A DNA stretch of 64,000 bases from Alphaproteobacteria bacterium (lineage in GTDB: Bacteria; Pseudomonadota; Alphaproteobacteria; Bin95). The translations under genes and the position numbers were made by a program. Of this stretch, positions 39,340 through 50,603 are shown in pieces. The notes below the pieces were generated by a model, which did not search any database, was not told the origin of the DNA, and was given only the letters and a program-made list of their open reading frames with translations. Position 1 is the first letter of the stretch, and every line of letters begins with the position of its first letter. Where the stretch lies: positions 2,432,001 to 2,496,000 of the forward strand of contig CBDBGH010000003.1 of the NCBI GenBank assembly GCA_965205265.1, written 5' to 3'.

Positions 39340-40618
39340 ATGCTGCAAAAAGGCGGAAGCAACTGGGTCGAGGGAGACCGCTTCTTCGACCGGGAGGTCG
39401 AGCTTGAGATCCTGACGGACCGCATGCGGGACGGAAATCACACCCTGGTGACCGCACAACGGCGCATGGGCAAGACGAGCCTCGTGCGGGAACTGCTGCG
39501 GCGCCTGGCGGAGGGCGGCGAATTCGAGACGGTCTTCGTCGATCTGGAAGCCGTCCTGGACCAGGCCGATACCATGGCCGAAATCACGGTTCGCGCCCGG
39601 CCTGTGAGCGGGGCATGGGGGCGGATCGAAGCCGGTTTCGTCAACATCCTGAAAGAAGTCGGCGGCCGAATCGAGGAACTGTCGGTCTCCGACCTGAAAG
39701 TGAAGCTGCGGGCCGGAATCGATGCCGGCAATTGGCCCCAGCGGGGCGATGCGGTCTTCGCCGCGCTCGCCGACAGCAACCGGCCGGTCGTGCTCGCCAT
39801 CGACGAACTGCCGATTCTCGTCAACCGCCTGCTCAAGGACGACAGCGGGCGAATCACGCCGGAAGGCAGGAAGGAAGCGGATGTGTTTCTGAGCTGGCTG
39901 CGCCGGAACGGGCAGGCCCATCGGGGACAGGTAACCATGATGCTGTCCGGCAGCGTCGGCCTTGAGCCGCTTCTCGAACAGGCTGGGCTGAGCGCCCACG
40001 CCAACATCTTCTCTGCCTACGACCATGAAGCCCTGGGATGAAGAGACCGCGGTATCGTGCCTGTCGGAGCTTGCCGGGAGCTACGAGGTCGGCCTGCCGC
40101 ACGGGATATGCCGGGACATGTGCCGGCGGCTCCGCTGCTGCATTCCCCACCATGTGCAGATGTATTTCGACAAGCTCCACGACCGTCTCAGGCACGCCGG
40201 TCGGCAGGCCGCAACGGAGGAGGATGCGGAAAGGGTCTATCTGCACGAGATGTTGAGCGTCCGGGGCCAGATGGACCTTCAACACTATGAAGACCGGTTG
40301 AGGACGATACTCGGAACGGCAGGCTATCCGGTCGCCATGGAGATACTGACCGCAACCGCTGTCGGCGGCCTTCTGGACGGCGATGCCGTTGGCCGTTACC
40401 GGGCGCATTTCGCGGCCGGGGCCGGGGATATCGAACCGGGCGGTCCGTCGGTCGGGGATGTGCTGCACGTCCTGCTCCATGACGGCTATCCGGAGCCGCA
40501 GGACGGCGGCTACCGGTTCAGGTCGGGTCTTCTCGAGGACTGGTGGCGGAACCGCTGGGGCGGAAGCTTCCGGCCCGTCATCGACGACGGGCGGCGGAGC
40601 GGGGGAGCGGGCCGATGA
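39340..40618 (+). pseudogene. STAND-like P-loop ATPase split by a 1-bp insertion (ORFs 39340-40041 and 40025-40618)
   Basis: FFDREVE, Walker A AQRRMGKTS, Walker B LAIDELP, LSGS, IPHHVQ, LLEDWW; removing A40025 restores ...AYDLKPWDEE. Confidence 0.75.
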
Positions 40619-43600
40619 CCGCCAGGAAATACAATCCGGGGTTCCTGTCCGACGACGAACTCGTCGCGACCTTCTGCGTGCGGACCCGGGAATTCGCCTC
40701 GATCGTCGAAACGCTCGGGGAATGCGACGGAAACTCGAACACGCACCAGATCGTCATCGGGCCGCGCGGCAGCGGCAAGACGAGCCTGCTGTTGCGGGTC
40801 GCGGCCGAGATAGACCGGGATGCCGGGCTCGCCTCGCGCTTCTTCCCGGTGGTCTTCGCGGAGGAGAGCTACGAAGTCTCGACTGTCGGGGAGTTCTGGC
40901 TCGAATGCCTATCGCGTCTGGCCGACCGGGCGCCGCAGCGCGAAGACGGTCCCGATCTGCGGCGCAGTTTCGAGGAACTGCGGGCCGTCCGGGACGACCG
41001 GGCGCTCGGGGACCGTTGCCTCGGCGCCCTGCAGGACTTCGCAGACCGTGAAGGCAAGCGCCTGGTGCTGTTCGTCGAGAACCTGAACATGATGTTCCGG
41101 GACATGGCGGACAAAGATGCCGGATGGAAGCTGCGCCACACGCTCCAGACCGAGCCGCGGATTGTCCTGCTGGCGAGCGCAACCAGCCGGTTCGACGAGA
41201 TGGACAGCCCGGACAAGGCCTTCTACGACCTCTTCCGGGTGCTGTTCCTGCGTCCTCTGGATACCGGCGACTGCGCGACCCTCTGGCAGCAGGTCTCGGG
41301 CCAGAGCCGGGCGCCGCAGACAATCCAGGCGTTGCGGATTCTCACCGGCGGCAGCCCCCGGCTTCTGACCATCGTGGCCCGTTTCGGGGCGAAGCTCTCG
41401 TTCCGCGAACTGATGGCCGACCTCCTGAACCTCGTGGATGACCATACCGAGTATTTCAAGAGCCACCTCGATGCGCTTCCCGCCCAGGAACGCCGTGTCT
41501 ATCTGGCCCTCGCTGCGTTATGGAAACCTGCGACTGCTCGCGAAATCGCTGACCGGGCGCGACTCGACACCAGCAAATGCAGCGCGCAACTCGCGCGACT
41601 GATCGATCGCGGCGCAGTCGAGACAACGGGCGGCAGCCCGCGGCGCAAGTTCTATTACCTCGCCGAGCGGCTCTACAACATCTACTACCTGATGCGCCGC
41701 GCCCGGGGACCCGCACCCCTGATCGAAGCGCTGGTCCGCTTCATGGAGGGATACTACTCGGCGGATGAGTTGAAGGAGTTCGGGGCCCGGATTGCGAGGG
41801 AGGCGCTGGAAACCGACGGCAAGGACCTGCCGCATTACCGGACCGCATTCCAGCAACTGGTCCGACTCCCGTCCCTGTCAGCGTACCGCGACGAATTGTT
41901 GTCGCTGACGCCGGCTGCGTTTGGCTTCGGCGAAGAGGGAAGCGGTTATTCCGCCGCGGACGGGCGTCCGGTATCGGCAAGGGAGCTTTTCGAGAACGGC
42001 CATGCCCTGGCCGAGGGCGGACGACTAAAGGAAGCTGTTGCGGCGTGGAAAGACCTCGTCCGCCGTTTCGGGGAAAGCGAAGCGGTGGACGACCGCAATC
42101 GGGTCTCGCTGGCGCTCGTAAATATGGGGACGGCGCTCGGGCGCCTGAACCGTTTCGAAGAGGCCCTTGCGGCCTGGGACGATGTTGTGCGGCGCTTCGG
42201 GGGAAACCGGGAACCTGCAATTCCTAATGCTGTCGCCACGGCCCTGCTAAAAACAGCGTTCCTGCACACCGAGGAGAACCGCCCGCTGGAAGCGCTGGCC
42301 GCATGCGACGAAGTCCTGCTGCGCTTTCGGGAGACGCGGATCGAGTCGCTTCAAAGTCTGCTCGCGAATGCGCTGATCGGCAAGACTGTTGCGCTTATGG
42401 CGTTGAACCGGCCGAACGAGGCTTTGGCCGCCTGCGACGAACTTTTGGGGCGTTTCGGCGCAAGCGCAGCGCCCGAATTCCTCGGCAGCATCGCCGCGGC
42501 CATGGCCGGTAGAGGCTCCGCCCTTCTCGCCCTTGGCCGTCTCGACGCAGCCGCGGCTGCATGGAGCCGGGTGGCGGAGCACTTCGGAAGCAGCGAGATT
42601 CCGGAAGCCATCGACCATGTTGCCATGGCGCTCGGCAACAAGGCGTCCGCTCTTGCCGGGCTCGGTCGCCCTGAAGAAGCGCTCGCCATATGCGAAGAGG
42701 TCCTGCACCGCTATACGGATGACCGTCGGCCGACACGGCGGGAACCGACCGCCGCCGCCTTGCTCCACAAGGGCAACGCCCTCGGTCTGTTGGGCCGCCA
42801 AGAGGAAGCGCTCGCCGCATGGAGTGAGTGCGCACAGCGCTTCGGTTCCGAACCGAACGAGCAAGTGCCGGTGGCATTGGCGCTGATGAGCACGGGCATG
42901 ACGCTGCTTCAAACAGACCGACCGGAAGAAGCATTGCCTGTCTGGGGCGACATCGTCCAACGCTTCGGAACGAGCGATCAGCCCCAGATACGTGCGGTTA
43001 TCGTCAAAGCTTTCACTCAAATGGGCACCTTGCTGGAGCACTTGGCCCGGCATGAGGAGGCTCTCGCCGTTTGGGAGGATGCCGAGCAGCGCTACGGAAC
43101 CGGAGTAGAGCCGGAATTTCTGGAACTGGTTGCCGGCTCTCTAGTCAACAGGGGCGCCACCCTCATCGAACTGGGCCGACTGGAGGAGGCGCTGGCGGTA
43201 TTCGACCGGGCGGTGCACCAATTCGAAACGAGCGAAGCGCCGGAGATCGTTTATTCCGTTGCAGCCGCTCTGCACAACAAGGGTTCTGTGCTCAACATGC
43301 TGAACCGGGCGGAAGAGGCGGTTGCGGTCTGGAATGAATTGATAAGCCGGTATGGCAACAGCAACGAGCCTTCAATCCTCAAGCAAGTTGCGGGTGCGGT
43401 TGTCGGCAAAGGTGCCGCGCTAGCCGGCATGGGTCGAATGGAAGAAGCGCTTACGGCCTGCGACGAGGTTCTCCATCGCTTCGGAGCGGACGCCGGACCG
43501 ACATATATCGAGGAGATGTGGACGGCTCTTTCCAACAAGATTACCGTTCTCGCCTTCCTGAACCGTCCGGAGGAGGCGCTGGCAGTCTGCGAGGAAGGTG

Positions 43601-44217
43601 TCCGGCGCTTTGAGGCCGGCACCGACACCGCAGCAGCGAACGCAATCGCCGCTTGCTTCGCGAAGAAAGGCGACCTGCTTGCCCAATTGGACAGGACCGA
43701 TGAGGCGGTCGCGGCCTGGAAGGAGGCGGTGCGGCGCTTTGGGGCCAGCGACGCGCCGGCGCTGCGCCAAACCGCCGATACGGCCCTGATCGGACTCGCC
43801 GGGCATGAGTTGAAGCAGGGGAACGCCGGGGCGGCCGTGGAGGCCGCAGACCGGGTTCTGCAACATGAGAAAGGAACGCCGGACAGCCGGTGGCGCGCCC
43901 TCTTCGTCCGCGCCTTGGCCCATCTTAAGGAAGGAGACAGAGCCGCATGCGCCCTCGACATCGAGGCGGGACTGGAGGTCCTTCCCGGCCTCGACATTCT
44001 CCCGAAGGATGCCCTGGACGCCCTGTCGGACATCGCTCTGGTATTCGGCCTGGCCGAAACGGGCGATCTCATCCGCAAGTCGCCAGCCTCCGACCTGCTG
44101 CTTCCCCTGACAACGGCCTTTGAGTTGGAACTGGGCCTGGAGCCGCGCGTGGCGAAGGAAGTCGAGGAAGTTGCCGAAGACATCCGGCGGGATTTGCGGG
44201 AGCGGCAAGGAAATTGA
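40615..44217 (+). CDS. STAND-like NTPase - wHTH - TPR-repeat protein (about 1200 aa)
   Basis: GPRGSGKT, LFVENLN, LTGGSPR, ATAREIADRARL (wHTH), about 14 repeats of about 43 aa (AL.nkg..L..LgR.eEAla..d..v.RFg). Confidence 0.85.
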   Translation: MTARKYNPGFLSDDELVATFCVRTREFASIVETLGECDGNSNTHQIVIGPRGSGKTSLLLRVAAEIDRDAGLASRFFPVVFAEESYEVSTVGEFWLECLSRLADRAPQREDGPDLRRSFEELRAVRDDRALGDRCLGALQDFADREGKRLVLFVENLNMMFRDMADKDAGWKLRHTLQTEPRIVLLASATSRFDEMDSPDKAFYDLFRVLFLRPLDTGDCATLWQQVSGQSRAPQTIQALRILTGGSPRLLTIVARFGAKLSFRELMADLLNLVDDHTEYFKSHLDALPAQERRVYLALAALWKPATAREIADRARLDTSKCSAQLARLIDRGAVETTGGSPRRKFYYLAERLYNIYYLMRRARGPAPLIEALVRFMEGYYSADELKEFGARIAREALETDGKDLPHYRTAFQQLVRLPSLSAYRDELLSLTPAAFGFGEEGSGYSAADGRPVSARELFENGHALAEGGRLKEAVAAWKDLVRRFGESEAVDDRNRVSLALVNMGTALGRLNRFEEALAAWDDVVRRFGGNREPAIPNAVATALLKTAFLHTEENRPLEALAACDEVLLRFRETRIESLQSLLANALIGKTVALMALNRPNEALAACDELLGRFGASAAPEFLGSIAAAMAGRGSALLALGRLDAAAAAWSRVAEHFGSSEIPEAIDHVAMALGNKASALAGLGRPEEALAICEEVLHRYTDDRRPTRREPTAAALLHKGNALGLLGRQEEALAAWSECAQRFGSEPNEQVPVALALMSTGMTLLQTDRPEEALPVWGDIVQRFGTSDQPQIRAVIVKAFTQMGTLLEHLARHEEALAVWEDAEQRYGTGVEPEFLELVAGSLVNRGATLIELGRLEEALAVFDRAVHQFETSEAPEIVYSVAAALHNKGSVLNMLNRAEEAVAVWNELISRYGNSNEPSILKQVAGAVVGKGAALAGMGRMEEALTACDEVLHRFGADAGPTYIEEMWTALSNKITVLAFLNRPEEALAVCEEGVRRFEAGTDTAAANAIAACFAKKGDLLAQLDRTDEAVAAWKEAVRRFGASDAPALRQTADTALIGLAGHELKQGNAGAAVEAADRVLQHEKGTPDSRWRALFVRALAHLKEGDRAACALDIEAGLEVLPGLDILPKDALDALSDIALVFGLAETGDLIRKSPASDLLLPLTTAFELELGLEPRVAKEVEEVAEDIRRDLRERQGN

Positions 44218-44531: not shown

Positions 44532-45737
44532 ATGACGACACTCGCAGAGCCGCAGGCGGAAAACGCGGCGCACGACCCCTATAGGGCCCTGATGGAAATC
44601 ACCCGGCGGCCCGCCATCACCTTCACGCACGGGCGGGGCGGGCTGCTCTGGGACAGCGAGGGCAACCGCTATCTGGACTTCATCCAAGGCTGGGCGGTGA
44701 ACTGCCTCGGGCATAGCCCCCCGGCCGTCGCCCGCGCGCTGGCGGAGCAGTCGGCCCGGCTGCTCAACTGCAGCCCCGCCTATTACAGCGAGCCGATGAT
44801 GCGCTATGCGAATGCGCTGACGGCGGCGGCGGGCCTGGAGCGGGTCTTCTTCGCCAATAGCGGCGCGGAGGCGAATGAGGGCGCCATAAAGCTCGCGCGG
44901 AAATGGGGCGCGAAGCACCGCGGCGGCACCTATGAGATCGTCACCACCGTCGGCGGCTTCCACGGCCGGACGCTCGCCACCATGTCCGCATCGGGCAAGG
45001 CGGGCTGGGACGGGCTGTTCGAACCGAAGGTGGCCGGGTTCCCGAAAGTGCCGTTGAACGACCTGGCGGCCGTCGAGGCCGCGGTCGGGGACCGGACCGC
45101 CGCCGTCATGCTGGAGCCGATCCAGGGCGAGTCCGGCGTGTGGCCCGCGGATGACGGCTATCTGAGGTCCCTGCGCGCCCTGGCCGACCGGCGGGGCATC
45201 CTGCTGATCCTCGACGAGATCCAGACCGGCATGGGCCGGACCGGAAGCCTGTTCTGCTTCGAGCATGCCGGCGTCCGCCCGGACATCGTGACGCTCGGCA
45301 AGGGGATCGGGGCCGGAACTCCTCTCGCGGCGCTGCTCGCGCGCGAGGAAGTCTGCTGTTTCGAGCCGGGCGACCAGGGCGGCACCTATAACGGCAATGC
45401 GCTGATGGCCGCGGTCGGCCATGCGGTGCTCGAAGAGCTCACTGCGGACGGCTTCCTCGAGCGCGTCTGCGAGGCCGGGGCGGCGCTGCGGCGCGGCTTG
45501 GAGAGCCTCAGCGGGAAATACGGCCTCGGCGGCGTGCGCGGCAGGGGGCTGCTGCTTGCCCTCGACCTGACGCCGCGTTCCGACGGGTTCGCCCTCGTCG
45601 AGAAGGCGCTGGCGAAGGGACTGCTGCTCAACGCCCCCGCCCCCGACGCGCTCCGCTTCGTGCCGGCGCTCAACGTTACCGATGCGGAAATCGCCGAGAT
45701 GCTGGATGTGCTGGACGGCTTGCTGGAAGGCCGGTAG
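44532..45737 (+). CDS. argD: Acetylornithine aminotransferase (class III PLP)
   Basis: [47 protein letters not shown]. Confidence 0.88.
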
Positions 45738-45827
45738 CCGGCGGTGCGGCGGGTGCGGCGGCAGAGGCGGCAAGACAAACAGTTCGCTTATTCGCTTCAC
45801 CGCTGCGATTGCCTTTGCTAACCTAGA

Positions 45828-46006
45828 CTTCCTCTTAGCTGGGTGCTCTCGAATGACTCGACTTGAGGTCACTCTATGCCGGGTGTTTAGCCAGGCTGCA
45901 TGCAATTGCGCGAGTTTGGGCGCCGACTTGGCCGAGCCAAGGCGCACCCGGCTCCGCTCGGGCCCGCCTTGGCTCGGCCAAGTCGGCTTCGCTAGGTAAG
46001 AGGCAG
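45828..46006 (+). ncRNA. msr-msd: Retron msr-msd ncRNA
   Basis: a2 CCTCTTA (45831-37) then branching G45838; a1 TAAGAGG (45997-46003); msr stem-loops; perfect 23-bp msd stem 45922-45944/45965-45987. Confidence 0.88.
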
Positions 46007-46011
46007 AGGAA

Positions 46012-46926
46012 GTGGACCATCCGCTTCTCAGCGCGGACCAAGCCGCGCTACGCCGGCGGTTGGTCCACTTCCTCAAAACTGCCCTTTCTGTCCAGCGCTC
46101 CAGCAATATCATATTTTTGTGTGGGGGCACCAACTCCAACGATTTGCGAATGACCTTTAAGGAGTACTGCCAAAACCATCTACAAGAATATCAAATTTTT
46201 CTGCCTGAGGCAGCTATGACGCCCCTCTTCTCTGACGACCTACAAGAACCTTTTGATCTCACAGATTTTGAGGTCCTTGTTGGCCGAATATCGCTAGCCA
46301 TCGTTCTCTTTCCTGAAGCCGCTGGCTCCTATGCTGAAACCGGTTATTTTTCTGCAATTCCAGCTCTCGCTCAAAAATGCATCCTTGTTTTGGATCGAAA
46401 ATACCAATCTGACGACAGCTTCTTGTCACTTGGCCCTGCAAAAAAAATCTCCGAACAGTCGATCTTTCATCCGAACATCACTCTCGATTACTGTCAACCA
46501 GACTTTGAAACAATAACCACCAGACTACGTTCTCGAAAACTTTCTAAGAAACGTAAATCTTTGCAAATTGACAAATTTTCTGATTTGTCCGAATACGAAA
46601 TCATTGTTGTGTTAGATATGATTGTAAGGCTTTGTAAAATTGCAACTCTATCAGATATAAATTACTTGCTAGCCGCGATTTTCAAAAATAGATTTTCACA
46701 ATCAAAAATTCAGAAACTTTTGTCGATTTTAGTTGGCTCAAATTATCTTCAAGAGATTGGTCCATATGGTCACTTTACCAGTGGTAACGACAAGCTATCT
46801 CTCGCGATTGTTCGGGAAGGTTTCAAAAATGACGAACAAGAATTGCGATTGTCATTAACAACAATTTGCCAAAAGGCAGAGCCGGATTTTGTGAATCTAA
46901 TTAGGGCACCGACCTATGTTGATTGA
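46012..46926 (+). CDS. Retron St85-family effector (NDT-like plus probable wHTH; RcaT-like toxin)
   Basis: IFLCGG, FPEAAGSYAETGYF, SFLSLGP motifs; AT-rich; lies between the ncRNA and the RT. Confidence 0.85.
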   Translation: MDHPLLSADQAALRRRLVHFLKTALSVQRSSNIIFLCGGTNSNDLRMTFKEYCQNHLQEYQIFLPEAAMTPLFSDDLQEPFDLTDFEVLVGRISLAIVLFPEAAGSYAETGYFSAIPALAQKCILVLDRKYQSDDSFLSLGPAKKISEQSIFHPNITLDYCQPDFETITTRLRSRKLSKKRKSLQIDKFSDLSEYEIIVVLDMIVRLCKIATLSDINYLLAAIFKNRFSQSKIQKLLSILVGSNYLQEIGPYGHFTSGNDKLSLAIVREGFKNDEQELRLSLTTICQKAEPDFVNLIRAPTYVD

Positions 46927-47851
46927 AGATCTTCAAATTCAGTCAGGACTTTCACGCCAGCAATTACTCTATCTGTCCAACACGGCATCAAAGAGATATA
47001 AATCTTATACGATTCAGAAACGCAATGGAGGATCGCGAACGATTCACCATCCTAGTAGGACGCTAAAGGCAATTCAGCGATGGCTTAATTTGGTTCTAAT
47101 TTCTAACCTGCCAGTACATGATAGCGCAACTGCATACAGGAAAGGACAAAGCATTCGATCGAATGCCATGATGCATGCGAAAACACGGTTCACATTGCGA
47201 ATGGACTTCAGAGAATTTTTTCCATCCTTTTGCGTCCATCATGTCCGAGAATTTATCGAAAGGAAAGGATCGGAAATCGGTTGGGAATTAAGTGACGATG
47301 ATTTAGAATTTGTAGCGAAAATAAGTACCAGATTTGATTTTTTAACTATAGGAGCCCCATCATCACCGACCTTGACTAATGCGATGATGTATGGATTTGA
47401 TTATCGTGTGTCGGATTGGGCAGATGCAGAAGGATTGATTTATACTCGATACGCTGATGATCTGTTTATTTCGTCTCGAAGACCTAACAAATTAGCGGCA
47501 GCGCGGGATAGAATATTGGAAGAAAGTGCACAATTTAAATACGCAAAACTAATCATAAATGACAAGAAAACAGCATACTTGTCGCGGCGATATCGACGAA
47601 CAATTACTGGCTTGGTTGTAACACCGGGGGAGCGAGTATCCATTGGACGGGGACGTAAGCGCGAAATAAAAAGTATGGTTCACAGGTTTATGGCAGGGTC
47701 GATGACAATCGGAGAAATAGACAAGTTGCGCGGACTAGTCGGGTATTCTAAGGGAGTGGAACCAAGCTTTTATGATTCTGTTTGTGTCAAGTATGGGAAA
47801 TCGGTGTTAGAGAAGGTGCTCAAGGGAGATTTGGAGGCGAAGCGCGTTTAG
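46916..47851 (+). CDS. Retron reverse transcriptase (St85 family)
   Basis: KRNGGSRTI, retron region X NAMMH, DFREFFPS, GAPSSP, YTRYADD, region Y ITGL. Confidence 0.95.
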   Translation: MLIEDLQIQSGLSRQQLLYLSNTASKRYKSYTIQKRNGGSRTIHHPSRTLKAIQRWLNLVLISNLPVHDSATAYRKGQSIRSNAMMHAKTRFTLRMDFREFFPSFCVHHVREFIERKGSEIGWELSDDDLEFVAKISTRFDFLTIGAPSSPTLTNAMMYGFDYRVSDWADAEGLIYTRYADDLFISSRRPNKLAAARDRILEESAQFKYAKLIINDKKTAYLSRRYRRTITGLVVTPGERVSIGRGRKREIKSMVHRFMAGSMTIGEIDKLRGLVGYSKGVEPSFYDSVCVKYGKSVLEKVLKGDLEAKRV

Positions 47852-47880
47852 CAGAGAAAACGAAAGACAAGCTCACTTTC

Positions 47881-48098
47881 GAGAATGCGGCGGTCTGCTC
47901 AGGACCGGCATGGCCGCCGACATCGTGGTGTTCGACGAGGCGGCGGTGAAGCCCTGCCTGCCGACGGTGGAACACGACCTGCCCGGCGGCGAGCACCGGC
48001 TGGTGCAGAAGGCCGAGGGCATCGACGCCACCATCGTCAACGGCGAGAGCACCGGTGCCGTTCCGGGCGGAGTCATAAGGGGCCCGCTCGCGGCTTAG
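47881..48098 (+). pseudogene. C-terminal remnant of an N-acyl-D-amino-acid deacylase-type amidohydrolase
   Basis: GLLRTGMAADIVVFD...DLPGG..RL.QKAEGIDATIVNGE..TGAVPG; no N-terminal part. Confidence 0.7.
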
Positions 48099-48130
48099 CG
48101 GCGTCCCCTCCTCCGGCCTGTCCGAGCGGA

Positions 48131-48354
48131 CTAACCGTCCCCCTCCGCGATATCCGTCTTCAGCGCCCGTTTCACGCCCTCGCTGCGGCTGTGGATCGGG
48201 GCGAACTGGCCGTTCAGGCGGAGGAACTGGTTCAGTTGGTTGCCGAAACCGAGCGCGCCGTGCAGCGCCATGTCCTCCGCCAGCCGGCAGGTGGTCCTGG
48301 TGCGCCGGACGGCCTAGGGCACGCGGCCGGTCAGCGTGCCGAAGAACACCGCCA
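48131..48354 (-). pseudogene. Degenerate copy of the 3' end of the enoyl-CoA hydratase gene
   Basis: Aligns by eye to 49158-49370; TGG to TAG stop at about 48314. Confidence 0.8.
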
Positions 48355-48448
48355 TCGCTTTGGAGAATCTGCTTAACCAAGCCTTGACCAAGGCTGTAAT
48401 GGCGGTTATCTGCGGGCGGACACGGACATGCGGACAGGAACAGGGTCC

Positions 48449-48682
48449 ATGCCTCCCACCTTCAATATCGGCGATGCCAAGACGCGGTTGTCGCATCTGA
48501 TCGCCCAGGCCGAGGAAGGCCGGGATGTCGTCATCGCGCGCAACGGCGTGCCGGCAGCCCGCATTGTGCCGATACGGGAACCGGTCGCCCGCACCGTCGA
48601 ACTGTTGAGGCAGGAACGGAAGGAGCGCCCCGCCGTCTCCGCCGAGGAGATTCGCGCCGCCAGGGACGAGGGCCGCGCCTGA
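48449..48682 (+). CDS. Phd/YefM family antitoxin
   Basis: FNIGDAKTRLSHLI..AEEG.DVVIARNGVPAARIVP. Confidence 0.9.
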   Translation: MPPTFNIGDAKTRLSHLIAQAEEGRDVVIARNGVPAARIVPIREPVARTVELLRQERKERPAVSAEEIRAARDEGRA

Positions 48683-49083
48683 TGGCTGTCGTTATCGACG
48701 CCTCCATCGCGGCGGCATGGTGCTTCCCCGACGAGCGGGCGCAGGCGGCCGAGCAAGTTCTGGATATGCTGCCGCAAACCGGAGGCGTCGTTCCCGGACT
48801 CTTCCGGCATGAAATCCGCAATATACTGATCGTGAACGAACGCCGCGGCCGTATCGACCGCACCCAAAGCCTGCGGTTCCTGACACGTTTGCGGAGCCTG
48901 CAACTGGTGCAGGACGATTCTCATGACGAAGACACGGTCCTCGCGCTCGCCCGCAATCGCCGCCTGTCCGCCTACGACGCTTCCTATCTGGAGACCGCGT
49001 TGCGCCGGGGCGACAGCCTTGCGACGCTCGATCGCGCCCTTGCCCGCGCGGCCTCCGCCGAAGGTGTAACCGTCATCGCCTGA
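48682..49083 (+). CDS. vapC: VapC (PIN domain) toxin
   Basis: VVIDAS, HEIRN, LSAYDASYL, LATLD. Confidence 0.9.
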   Translation: MAVVIDASIAAAWCFPDERAQAAEQVLDMLPQTGGVVPGLFRHEIRNILIVNERRGRIDRTQSLRFLTRLRSLQLVQDDSHDEDTVLALARNRRLSAYDASYLETALRRGDSLATLDRALARAASAEGVTVIA

Positions 49084-49132: not shown

Positions 49133-49948
49133 TTACCCGCCTTCCACCGCCTCCTCATCCGCAATATCCGTCTTGAGGGCCTGTTTCACGCCCTCGCTGC
49201 GGCTGTGGATCGGCGCGATCTGGCCGTTCAGGCGGAGGAGCTGGTTCAGCTGGTTGCCGAAATTGAGCGCGCCGTGCAGCGCCATGTCCTCGGCGAGGCG
49301 GTAGGTCGTCTTGGTGCGCCGGACCGCCCAGGGCGCGCGGTCCGCGAGCGTGCCGACGAAGGCGGCCACCGCCCCGGCCAGCCCGCCCGGCTCCGCCAGC
49401 CGGTTCACCAGGCCGAACTCGCGATACTGCTCGGCGGTGTAGAGGTCGCCGGTCATGGCGATCTCCAGCCCCCGGCGCCGCCCGATCTGGCGCGTGAGCA
49501 GCGCGATGTTCATGGCGGCCGGGAAGCCGTAGGCCATCTCCACATTGCCGAACCGCGCGCCGCGCTCGGCCACGACGAAATCGCAGGCGAGCGACATGGC
49601 CTGCCCGCCGCCGAGCGCCATGCCGTGCACAGCCGCAATCGTCGGCTTCGGCGATTCGATCAGCAGCGAGAGCGCCTCCAGGAAGATGTCCACCGCCGCG
49701 TCCACGGACATGTCCTGGAGAATGGCGGCCTCCTCGAATTCGGAGGCGTCGCGACCGGAGGTGAAGCAGTCGCCCGCGCCCCGGACGACGATGGCGCGCA
49801 CCTCGTCATCCGCAATGGCGCTGCGCACGGCCGCTGCGAACGCTGCCAGCAGCGCGTCGTTCATCGCGTTCTTCTTCTCCGGGCGGTTGAGCGTCAGCAC
49901 GGCGGCGCGGCCCTCTTGCGAGACGAGCACGAGCGGTCGGTCCGGCAT
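49133..49948 (-). CDS. Enoyl-CoA hydratase/isomerase family protein
   Basis: LTLNRPEKKNAMN, KPTIAAVHGMALGGG, CDF. Confidence 0.92.
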   Translation of the reverse strand: MPDRPLVLVSQEGRAAVLTLNRPEKKNAMNDALLAAFAAAVRSAIADDEVRAIVVRGAGDCFTSGRDASEFEEAAILQDMSVDAAVDIFLEALSLLIESPKPTIAAVHGMALGGGQAMSLACDFVVAERGARFGNVEMAYGFPAAMNIALLTRQIGRRRGLEIAMTGDLYTAEQYREFGLVNRLAEPGGLAGAVAAFVGTLADRAPWAVRRTKTTYRLAEDMALHGALNFGNQLNQLLRLNGQIAPIHSRSEGVKQALKTDIADEEAVEGG

Positions 49949-49998: not shown

Positions 49999-50304
49999 TT
50001 AACCCGACGCGCGCAGCCGGTCATCGGTATCGAGCGTAGGCAGGCGGGCAATCTCCACTCCGCTCTTTCGCTCCGCCAGCCGCAATTCGTAGAGCTTTTG
50101 AAGGTTCAGCCAGAACTCGCCGGACGTCCCAAAGAAACGGCCCAGGCGCAGCGCCGTGTCCCCGGTGACGGCGCGGCGCCCGTTCAGGATTTCGGTAATC
50201 CGGTTTACCGGAACCTCAATCCGCCGGGCCAGTTCGGCCGCGCTCATGCCCAGCGCATCGAGGTCCTCCCTCAGGGTCTCGCCCGGATGGATGGGGTCAC
50301 GCAT
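49999..50304 (-). CDS. higA: HigA family antitoxin
   Basis: PIHPGETL, RITEILNGRRAVTGDTALRLGRFFGTSGEFWLNLQ. Confidence 0.93.
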   Translation of the reverse strand: MRDPIHPGETLREDLDALGMSAAELARRIEVPVNRITEILNGRRAVTGDTALRLGRFFGTSGEFWLNLQKLYELRLAERKSGVEIARLPTLDTDDRLRASG

Positions 50305-50321
50305 CGCGATGAGCCTCCTCG

Positions 50322-50603
50322 TCAGTGGTAATCGACAATTTCCACGTCTGTCGGGCCGGAGCTTCCATCCGGCCACCTAAAGCAAATCCGCCACTGGTCA
50401 TTGATCCGTATACTCCATTGCCCCCGTCGCCGGCCTCTCAGGGCTTCGAGTCGATTGCCCGGCCGCGCCAGGTCGCGCAGACCGGTCGCTGCATCGAGTT
50501 GGTCCAGCTTGCGCGAGGCGGTGCGCGCAAAGCCGGAAAAGGCCGGAACCCTGCGGCCCCGGTAGAACGCTTCCGTCCTCTTGTCCCCGAAGCCAACGAT
50601 CAA
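50322..50603 (-). CDS. higB: HigB (RelE-like) toxin
   Basis: RKLDQLDAA, PGNRLEAL, WSIRINDQWRICFRW, VEIVDYH; TTG start. Confidence 0.93.
   Translation of the reverse strand: MIVGFGDKRTEAFYRGRRVPAFSGFARTASRKLDQLDAATGLRDLARPGNRLEALRGRRRGQWSIRINDQWRICFRWPDGSSGPTDVEIVDYH

Follow-up and report, generated by a model that had tools for sequence, protein, structure and literature searches.

The stretch analysed here, henceforth the window, comprises 64,000 nucleotides (nt) of an alphaproteobacterial genome (GenBank assembly GCA_965205265.1, contig CBDBGH010000003.1, positions 2,432,001 to 2,496,000 of the forward strand), and all coordinates given below are counted from its first letter. On its plus strand, downstream of an aminotransferase gene, we find a retron, i.e. 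a noncoding RNA (ncRNA) followed by genes for an effector and a reverse transcriptase (RT). The retron cargo extends from 45774 to 47870, is about 2.1 kilobases (kb) long and is AT-rich: the G+C fraction (GC) is 0.355-0.435 in 400-nt segments between 46200 and 47799, as against 0.64-0.71 in both flanks, bearing out the remark in an initial annotation of this DNA that the open reading frames (ORFs) are AT-rich relative to the host. The two ORFs, at 46012-46926 (304 amino acids (aa), GTG start) and 46916-47851 (311 aa), overlap, with the ATG of the RT gene placed 11 nt before the end of the effector gene, and no integrase was detected within the cargo.

The 401-aa class-III aminotransferase encoded upstream of the retron passes the NF002985 acetylornithine transaminase equivalog (586 bits against a cut-off of 568); hence the gene is argD, and the initial placement of the retron after argD is correct. 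The accompanying description as an insertion needs amendment, in that the cargo replaced most of the next gene rather than being simply inserted. The evidence set out below indicates that the locus is very probably an intact type II-A1 (St85/Sen2-family) retron, which arrived horizontally as a cassette of 2.1 kb and took the place of most of an amidohydrolase gene located downstream of argD. Its features are the following:

45774-47870, plus strand: acquired cargo with promoter-like element, ncRNA, effector and RT, delimited by the breaks in homology to the argD loci of relatives and by the drop in GC
45816-45824, plus strand: candidate extended -10 promoter element, TGCTAACCT (TAACCT at 45819-45824), from the alignment of relatives
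45831-45837, plus strand: a2 inverted repeat, CCUCUUA, pairing with 45997-46003
45838, plus strand: predicted branching guanosine (priming 2'-OH), the G of TTAG directly 3' of a2
45839-45917, plus strand: msr, from RNAalifold and pair counts
45918-45996, plus strand: msd template, a long stem-loop with arms at 45922-45950 and 45959-45987
45996-46003, plus strand: a1 inverted repeat, GUAAGAGG, pairing with a2 and located 8 nt before the effector GTG
46006-46074, plus strand: conserved hairpin over the effector start codon and first 21 codons, with arms at 46006-46024 and 46056-46074
46012-46926, plus strand: effector, 304 aa from a GTG start, with an NDT-like (RcaT-type) domain at its N-terminus plus, at its C-terminus, a winged-helix-like one, from profiles, alignment and a predicted model
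46916-47851, plus strand: retron RT, 311 aa, from PADLOC, NCBIfam, Pfam and PDB matches
47871-48098, plus strand: 3' remnant of the displaced amidohydrolase gene (host DNA, outside the retron), aligning with the 3' end of an Amidohydro_3 ORF in the relative G007

The reverse transcriptase and the effector

Profile searches with the product of the second ORF returned RT_II-A (PDLC02939) as the best PADLOC model (E = 5.3e-102, 339 bits), followed by RT_I-A with 268 bits (reported as 72 bits lower), while the NCBIfam model NF038233, 'retron St85 family RNA-directed DNA polymerase', was matched with 321 bits (cut-off 235) and the Pfam family RVT_1 with an E-value of 1.7e-16. Of 16 distinct PDB sequences recovered at E <= 0.001 the best 14 are retron RTs, among them 9n69_E (2.5e-48), Ec83 (1.6e-46), Ec78 (about 1e-43) and Ec86 (5.9e-42). 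Retron RTs typically display the motifs NAxxH and VTG. The protein from the window contains N83-A-M-M-H87, Y179-A-D-D182 and I230-T-G232, all three of which had been noticed at the outset, and the last of these aligns with the VTG of 9n69_E and Ec83.

Given the 268 bits on RT_I-A and the type I-A RTs among the best solved relatives (Ec78/Eco7 and Ec83, 1.6e-46 to 1e-43), one might suspect that the resemblance to type II-A is superficial and that the locus is another RT-based system, such as a type I-A retron or a DRT/Abi-type RT. Yet the II-A model scores 72 bits above the I-A model, the DRT models fall far below their cut-offs, and the PtuA-type ATPase and HNH nuclease effectors of type I-A are both absent, with no gene for an ATPase or HNH protein in or adjoining the cargo and an NDT-type effector as the sole partner ORF. 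We accordingly give this explanation hardly any credence. Mestre et al. (2020; PMC7736814) place type I-A and type II-A1 retrons in a common RT clade 1 and describe a common ncRNA-RT module for the two, which would account for the nearness of the RT to type I-A.

The effector is recognized by the PADLOC model NDT_II-A (1.5e-48) and by the NCBIfam model NF038232, 'retron St85 family effector protein' (163 bits, cut-off 100), and it matches the solved Ec86 effector with an E-value of 1.8e-11 over residues 29-218; the Pfam search returned no family for this ORF. Its motifs IIFLCGG and PEAAGSYAE had likewise been recognized in the initial annotation. An alignment of 28 homologues reveals a conserved N-terminus, MDHPL, by which the effector start is settled as the GTG at 46012, and F35, E87 and E109 are invariant in the 28 sequences. 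In the Sen2 effector RcaT the catalytic triad is F28, E85 and E107, according to a cryo-electron microscopy preprint (10.64898/2026.10.13.758329), which also connects the oligomeric state of the effector with toxicity, and E109 of the window's effector aligns with the glutamate replaced in the inactive Eco1 structure 8qbl (E106A). An AlphaFold2 model built on the 28-homologue alignment (predicted local distance difference test (pLDDT) 86.6, predicted template-modelling score (pTM) 0.86) is predicted to form, in residues 194-298, three helices, a beta-hairpin and two further helices (pLDDT 85-95). With this model as query, the top three Foldseek matches are chains of the Ec86/Eco1 effector (7xjg_J, 8qbk_E and 8qbl_E), aligned over 323-328 columns with E-values of 1e-11 to 1e-10, template-modelling scores of 0.52-0.58 and 18-19% identity, while NDT-fold enzymes match the N-terminal domain only. 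Judged from this model, the protein has the features of an NDT/RcaT-like effector, with the catalytic residues in place and a C-terminal domain of the DNA-binding type.

In the classification of Mestre et al. (PMC7736814) type II-A1 retrons are those that combine an NDT effector, bearing a DNA-binding domain at its C-terminus, with an RT of clade 1, the clade common with type I-A. The ranking of RT_II-A above RT_I-A fits clade 1, with the clade placement judged from profile scores, and profile scores together with gene order and the effector are the basis of the subtype call as a whole. Apart from the clade placement, the membership features of type II-A1 that sequences can reveal are found at this locus.

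Related elements and their distribution

A scan of species-level reference genomes with the effector profile recovered 38 related loci, all alphaproteobacterial by their record titles, from Rhizobiales, Rhodobacterales, Rhodospirillales, Caulobacterales and Sphingomonadales. Of 400 other genomes sampled from the whole class, 5 yielded a member of the effector family, as did none of 14 control genomes. The nearest non-self effector protein is 66% identical, and 188 proteins among 2,523 candidates match at E <= 1e-5. A search of plasmids for effector relatives yielded one record only, a St85-family element of the Escherichia coli plasmid pCombat13F7-1 (NZ_CP019246.1; L060), and sampling at the phylum level returned mostly members of the same class with one non-class hit. 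The gene order ncRNA, effector, RT is seen in 36 of the 38 elements in which an RT ORF could be found, and the overlap of effector and RT genes is -11 nt in 12 of 38, the window included. One relative, L053 on a contig of a Novosphingobium metagenome-assembled genome, is a decayed copy, in which most of the msd is missing in the alignment and the effector frame stops after 25 aa.

Homologues of the effector from Parvibaculum, Phenylobacterium, Rhizobium, Neorhizobium and Labrys are already named 'retron St85 family effector protein' by NCBI. The initial portrayal of the locus as a divergent and, by implication, rare example therefore has to be abandoned in the face of the 38 related alphaproteobacterial loci and the several homologues already named: going by its sequence, the retron is neither rare nor unannotated, and is a new member of the known type II-A1. 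The usefulness for defence biology and as an editing retron that was claimed at the outset is likewise overstated and should be taken as potential. As a retron it adds little beyond a well-preserved alphaproteobacterial member of the St85/Sen2 family that current annotation models already recognize. In the literature searched on retrons, Alphaproteobacteria and multicopy single-stranded DNA (msDNA), titles and the opening parts of abstracts point to no characterised retron of this kind, and the main texts of the census and environmental-retron papers mention no alphaproteobacterial members, though their supplements may list some.

Conserved architecture of the ncRNA

The regions upstream of the effector in the related loci align well with that of the window. 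The consensus layout of the ncRNA obtained with RNAalifold from the 38 loci consists, in order, of a2, an unpaired G, two msr hairpins, a linker, the msd stem and a1. In the window a2 (CCTCTTA, 45831-45837) pairs with a1 (TAAGAGG, 45997-46003), and the pairing reaches CTTCCTCTTA/TAAGAGGCAG with one mismatch, back to 45828. Six counted pairs of this helix are paired in 100% of 38 sequences, with compensatory changes at two of them; a seventh pair is taken from a 10-sequence alignment. The G of TTAG (G45838) is invariant in 38 of 38 sequences and unpaired in the consensus fold, and is the probable site of the 2'-5' branch. The a2/a1 repeats with a TTAG branching G, as initially described, are thus present in the window, as is the msr hairpin with a TGTTT loop. 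The latter, at 45878-45896, reads GCCGGG-TGTTTAG-CCAGGC with the loop UGUUUAG and is followed by CTGCATGCAATTGCGCGAGTTT; it is preceded by a first msr stem, GGGUG/CACUC (45841-45845 with 45870-45874), which encloses a variable hairpin, and is succeeded by a conserved linker (45897-45917). Helices 2 and 3, those of the msr, are 96-100% paired.

The arms of the msd stem are 29 nt long and 93% complementary, so that the stem, though correctly spotted in the initial annotation, is longer than the 23 base pairs (bp) given there. Across relatives its base and tip are conserved and its middle covaries: of the 22 pairs in this helix (helix 4), 15 show changes on both sides, and over the 38 sequences 96.7% of its cells are paired. 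The RT-DNA (msDNA) copied from it is predicted to be about 75-80 nt long. The 201-nt ncRNA folds with z = -5.5 relative to shuffled sequences, and a 271-nt stretch with z = -9.6, none of 200 shuffles being as good in either case. Over 42 pairs in 38 sequences, with the structure derived from the same alignment on which it was tested, 97.6% of pairs are standard as against 84.6% in shuffled alignments, and sliding the partner by 1-3 columns lowers the paired fraction of the same 42 pairs to 32-51%. Changes on both sides of a pair occur in 204 cells where 56.8 are expected, a number that none of 500 shuffles reaches. These counts demonstrate, at the level of the alignment, that the predicted ncRNA fold is maintained by compensatory changes. 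The earlier designation of the locus as a St85/Sen2-like type II-A retron is hence upheld by this covarying ncRNA, together with the PADLOC II-A models as best matches of both proteins, the NCBIfam St85 models scoring above their cut-offs and the structural match of the effector. An E-value search of 45000-48500 against Rfam detected no retron RNA family; its 5 matches, all far below the gathering scores, are microRNA-like models placed on hairpins.

Upstream of a2, 21 of 38 aligned elements have a hexamer of the form TAnnnT whose end is 14-15 nt ahead of the branching G, and in 12 of those it is preceded by TG. This hexamer may serve as a -10 promoter element, which would place the transcript start near 45831, i.e. 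at a2. A general scan flagged four promoter-like sites, as compared to 3.4 expected, all within ORFs, and one terminator-like site on the minus strand.

Two further observations concern the ncRNA. A perfect alternative 9-nt pairing of 45827-45835 with 46005-46013 (ACTTCCTCT/AGAGGAAGT) rivals both the a1:a2 helix and the outer arm of the start-codon hairpin described below; the minimum free energy (MFE) fold of the 201 nt uses it, but it is peculiar to the window, with no conservation among relatives. The sequence GANTC, which is the methylation site of the alphaproteobacterial CcrM enzyme, is found in the msd region of 15 of 38 relatives (the msd boundaries having been drawn with a crude pattern), frequently in the form of a palindromic pair within the stem; the stems concerned include those of L018, L019, L021, L023, L024, L033 and L043, and GATC occurs in L016 alone. 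The msd of the window contains neither GATC nor GANTC, and a Dam- or CcrM-type methylation trigger is therefore unlikely for this copy.

A conserved hairpin at the start of the effector gene

In all 39 elements the a1 8-mer (GUAAGAGG-like) stops 5-10 nt short of the start codon of the effector. As this is the spacing of a Shine-Dalgarno element, a1 can be read as Shine-Dalgarno-like although the same bases pair with a2, and it is likely that a1 doubles as such an element. Of 38 elements, 24 use a weak start codon, either GTG or TTG. In the window, the start codon and the first 21 codons are covered by the hairpin at 46006-46074, whose outer arms of 19 nt are 95% complementary and enclose an inner stem formed by about 46031-46037 with 46044-46050; the GC of this hairpin is 0.65, as compared to 0.39 in the rest of the effector ORF.

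The folding of the first 24 codons was compared with that of synonymous recodings drawn either from the codon usage of the same gene or with matched GC. With own-gene usage, z is at or below -2.6 in 38 of 39 elements, and for the window the MFE is -54.2 versus -23.5 +/- 4.5 kcal/mol (z = -6.9), none of 200 recodings being as stable. With matched GC, z is at or below -2.2 in 38 of 39 elements, no control is as stable in 33 of 39, and the window has an MFE of -54.2 versus -32.1 +/- 4.5 kcal/mol (z = -4.9; 0 of 100 as stable). The sole exception in both tests is L051, which is devoid of a start-region hairpin. A by-product of protein constraint or of GC content, considered as a simpler origin of the hairpin, is rejected by the two kinds of recoding.

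In 26 sequences that can be aligned without gaps, and in which the stem includes the start codon (register A), a core of 13 pairs is kept in 20-26 of the 26 at most positions, with compensatory changes at five core pairs (at one of these, for instance, CG in 9, UA in 7 and GC in 5). The outer extension of the hairpin that covers GAGGAAG is specific to the window. In the retron transcript the putative ribosome-binding site (RBS) and the start codon would thus both lie in stems, the a1 8-mer pairing with a2 and the start codon lying in the core stem of register A. Beyond these elements, two from other alphaproteobacterial II-A subclades, L054 (G117) and L056 (G318), whose effectors do not have the MDHPL N-terminus, place a putative Shine-Dalgarno element and start codon in a stem of 12-15 bp (z = -2.8 and -4.1), with starts that were guessed; in two more, L057 and L061, the start codons, also guessed, are apparently not buried. 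The outgroup L060 has the same ncRNA layout and no start hairpin (z = +0.8 and +0.5). Given the small number of non-class hits, any description of the hairpin as clade-specific rests on very few outgroup elements, namely L060, L061 and L057.

These features suggest, as the reading that we favour, a translational throttling of toxin initiation: with a1 paired to a2 and the GTG held in a strong hairpin, initiation of the toxin gene is probably kept low. A serious rival, which we hold to be possible rather than probable, is that the hairpin at 46006-46074 together with a1 acts as a 5' stabiliser against decay that depends on the 5' end, or as a processing mark, on an mRNA that begins near a1 after the action of RNase H. 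The hairpin indeed stands within 10 nt of the 5' end expected in that case, it is conserved in 38 of 39 elements in either register, inclusive of 11 with an unpaired start codon, and degradation of the msd RNA by RNase H is reported as established for Sen2 (10.1101/2020.06.22.160168). Overlap with the start codon is, however, not required of a stabiliser, yet in the 26 register-A sequences the U and G of that codon belong to the core stem, and the two unrelated subclades with guessed starts likewise seem to have their start codons buried.

Being strong, GC-rich and placed directly behind the ncRNA, the stem could also be an attenuator or intrinsic terminator, making the ncRNA far more abundant than the toxin-RT mRNA, and at least five T in the 8 nt after the stem are indeed found in 9 of 26 register-A elements. 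In the other 17 such a tail is absent, the window has three T in 8, and the terminator scan did not flag the start hairpin; moreover, the stem lies inside the coding sequence, so read-through would be needed for any effector or RT to be made. We regard this role as improbable. As for translational throttling, the literature searched describes a structured or occluded effector start only for type VI retrons; no such description was found for type II, where one may still be in print.

Acquisition of the cassette and its genomic neighbourhood

In genomes of the same genus the homology to the window stops just past the argD stop codon (about 45752-45773) and restarts at about 47871-47890. The gene that comes after argD in G007 is a complete Amidohydro_3 gene of 601 aa, whose 3' end matches 47871-48098 of the window; the intact gene on the one side and the 3' remnant on the other indicate that the cassette replaced about 1.6 kb of it. 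In G005 the same remnant follows 144 bp after argD in the absence of a retron, and a related retron with 72% nucleotide identity over the ncRNA and the 5' end of the effector gene is located on another chromosome; the genome of the window has a single retron-type RT match. The horizontal gain proposed in the initial annotation is supported, as far as sequence comparison goes, because of both the GC trough and the argD loci of relatives without a retron, with additional support from the related retron elsewhere in G005 and the sparse distribution in the class.

The heptamer AAGACAA occurs at both cargo junctions (45772-45778 and 47864-47870) and could be microhomology used in the replacement or could be due to chance. 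Within the amidohydrolase remnant, the segment 47892-48045 has matches of 80-87% to many loci of the same genome and of relatives (e.g. G000:C3:4279538-4279691), which suggests the end of a multi-copy paralogous gene rather than a unique flank. Adjoining the remnant, a piece of about 220 nt from the 3' end of an enoyl-CoA hydratase gene is duplicated at 86% identity (48138-48358 and 49152-49372); the gene itself is at 49133-49948 on the minus strand, and similar pieces recur in many genomes of the same genus. Just downstream of the retron are two type II toxin-antitoxin pairs, at 48428-49083 (plus strand) and 49999-50603 (minus strand); in the first a Phd/YefM antitoxin accompanies a PIN-domain toxin, and in the second a HigB-like toxin is matched by an HTH_3 antitoxin. 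In combining such pairs with gene fragments, the region resembles a small accretion zone for mobile modules. Directly upstream of argD, an ORF of 1224 aa (40543-44217, plus strand) encodes an N-terminal AAA_16/STAND-like ATPase domain, a TrmB/MarR-type winged helix and a long TPR array; it had no convincing match among the PADLOC models (the best being mad8 at 5e-4) and could be a STAND-type sensor.

The position of the retron among gene fragments, i.e. the amidohydrolase remnant and the duplicated piece of the enoyl-CoA hydratase gene, together with the clear decay of L053, in which the effector is cut at 25 aa and part of the msd is deleted, might suggest that the present copy too is a decaying or silent remnant that no longer makes msDNA or provides defence. 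We assign this a low probability: both ORFs are full length when compared to homologues of 300-305 and 303-330 aa, the invariant effector residues and the RT catalytic motif are all kept, and in the ncRNA every invariant column is kept and all helices pair.

Comparison with characterised retrons and a possible mechanism

Among the closest characterised retrons is Retron-Sen2 (St85, type II-A1) of Salmonella, with which the element has in common an operon of msr-msd, effector (RcaT in Sen2) and RT, two proteins that score above the cut-offs of the NCBI St85-family models, and an NDT-type effector with the Phe/Glu/Glu catalytic pattern and a C-terminal DNA-binding domain. By homology it should work as a tripartite toxin-antitoxin system. 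Sen2 is triggered when Dam methylates a GATC of its msd stem (10.64898/2026.10.13.758329), whereas the msd of the window is free of GATC and its host is an alphaproteobacterium; because methylation is the trigger in Sen2, methylation of msDNA at GANTC by host or phage may be relevant in those relatives that have GANTC in the msd.

Compared to Retron-Eco1 of E. coli, the effector shows a match over its full-length fold, with the IFLCGG and PExxGSxxE motifs aligned, although the identity in the structural alignment is only 18-19%. The gene order of Ec86 is ncRNA, RT, effector, and hence differs from that in the window. Eco1 (Ec86) is assigned to type II-A3 and RT clade 9 by Mestre et al. (PMC7736814).

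The plasmid-borne L060 resembles the window in its ncRNA: its a2 ends in CCCTTAG, its msr hairpin has the same GTGTTTAGCC loop as that of the window and is followed by an msd stem-loop, and its effector starts right after a1, with M-W-F-K-H-P for M-D-H-P in the window. It differs in that the effector identity is 29.5% over 45% of the query, its a1 is not Shine-Dalgarno-like and its first 24 codons form no hairpin, as noted above.

For the structured start the nearest parallel is the type VI Retron-Vpa2, whose toxin is described as being kept under translational repression by stems of a hybrid RNA for as long as msDNA has not accumulated, with a riboregulator proposed (10.1101/2025.10.22.683967). 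As in the Vpa2 hybrid RNA described there, the putative effector RBS and the start codon in the window lie in predicted stems of an RNA that is continuous with msr-msd. However, in Vpa2 the whole small toxin ORF lies inside the RNA closed by a1/a2, whereas in the window the ORF is 3' of a1, and the two systems also differ in effector, RT clade and accessory HTH protein. Conserved 7-nt direct repeats are further reported to join the Vpa2 msd to its riboregulator; in 30 of 37 elements of the present family we found no common word of at least 7 nt between msd and hairpin. The seven sporadic elements with such a word differ in its sequence and place. Complementarity of msDNA to the hairpin in the style of type VI was accordingly rejected.

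Extrapolating from Sen2 and Eco1, the RT would bind the msr and prime from the 2'-OH of G45838, and copying of the msd, with concurrent removal of the template by RNase H, would yield an RT-DNA of about 75-80 nt. The resulting RT-msDNA would hold the effector inactive by way of the effector's C-terminal DNA-binding domain, until modification, binding or degradation of the msDNA by a phage factor frees it; the freed effector, as a putative NAD+-dependent toxin of the ADP-ribosyltransferase/glycosidase type, would then arrest the infected cell. The RT might be made by translational coupling through the 11-nt overlap with the effector gene, and we caution that such coupling is not to be assumed. 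If initiation is throttled as proposed, the throttle might be lifted once the a1:a2 context is broken up by reverse transcription and RNase H. We tentatively extend this to a stricter version, of whose correctness we are doubtful, in which the a1:a2 duplex and the hairpin lock initiation, such that the toxin, and through coupling the RT, is efficiently made only after the transcript has served as a template.

Three observations weigh against parts of this overall picture. The closest solved relatives of the RT are type I-A RTs and not Ec86, for which the common clade discussed above offers an explanation. A consensus promoter scan, which needs a -35 element, found nothing upstream of a2, so the proposed -10 element rests on the alignment only. 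Finally, in 11 Rhodobacterales-type elements (register B) codon 4 is where the stem begins, and the ATG remains unpaired.

Implications

The cassette is compact (2.1 kb) and self-contained, and with a well-delimited branching G, template stem and set of catalytic residues it lends itself to assays of RT-DNA production or defence outside enterobacteria. The approximately 39 elements with a1 as a putative Shine-Dalgarno element and a selected start hairpin provide a testable idea for how toxin synthesis may be limited or timed in a toxin-antitoxin retron. Should the template-first version be true, the output of toxin would be tied to the prior synthesis of the antitoxin, i.e. msDNA, from the same RNA, and control of the effector at the RNA level, so far described only for type VI, would reach the most common family of retron effectors.

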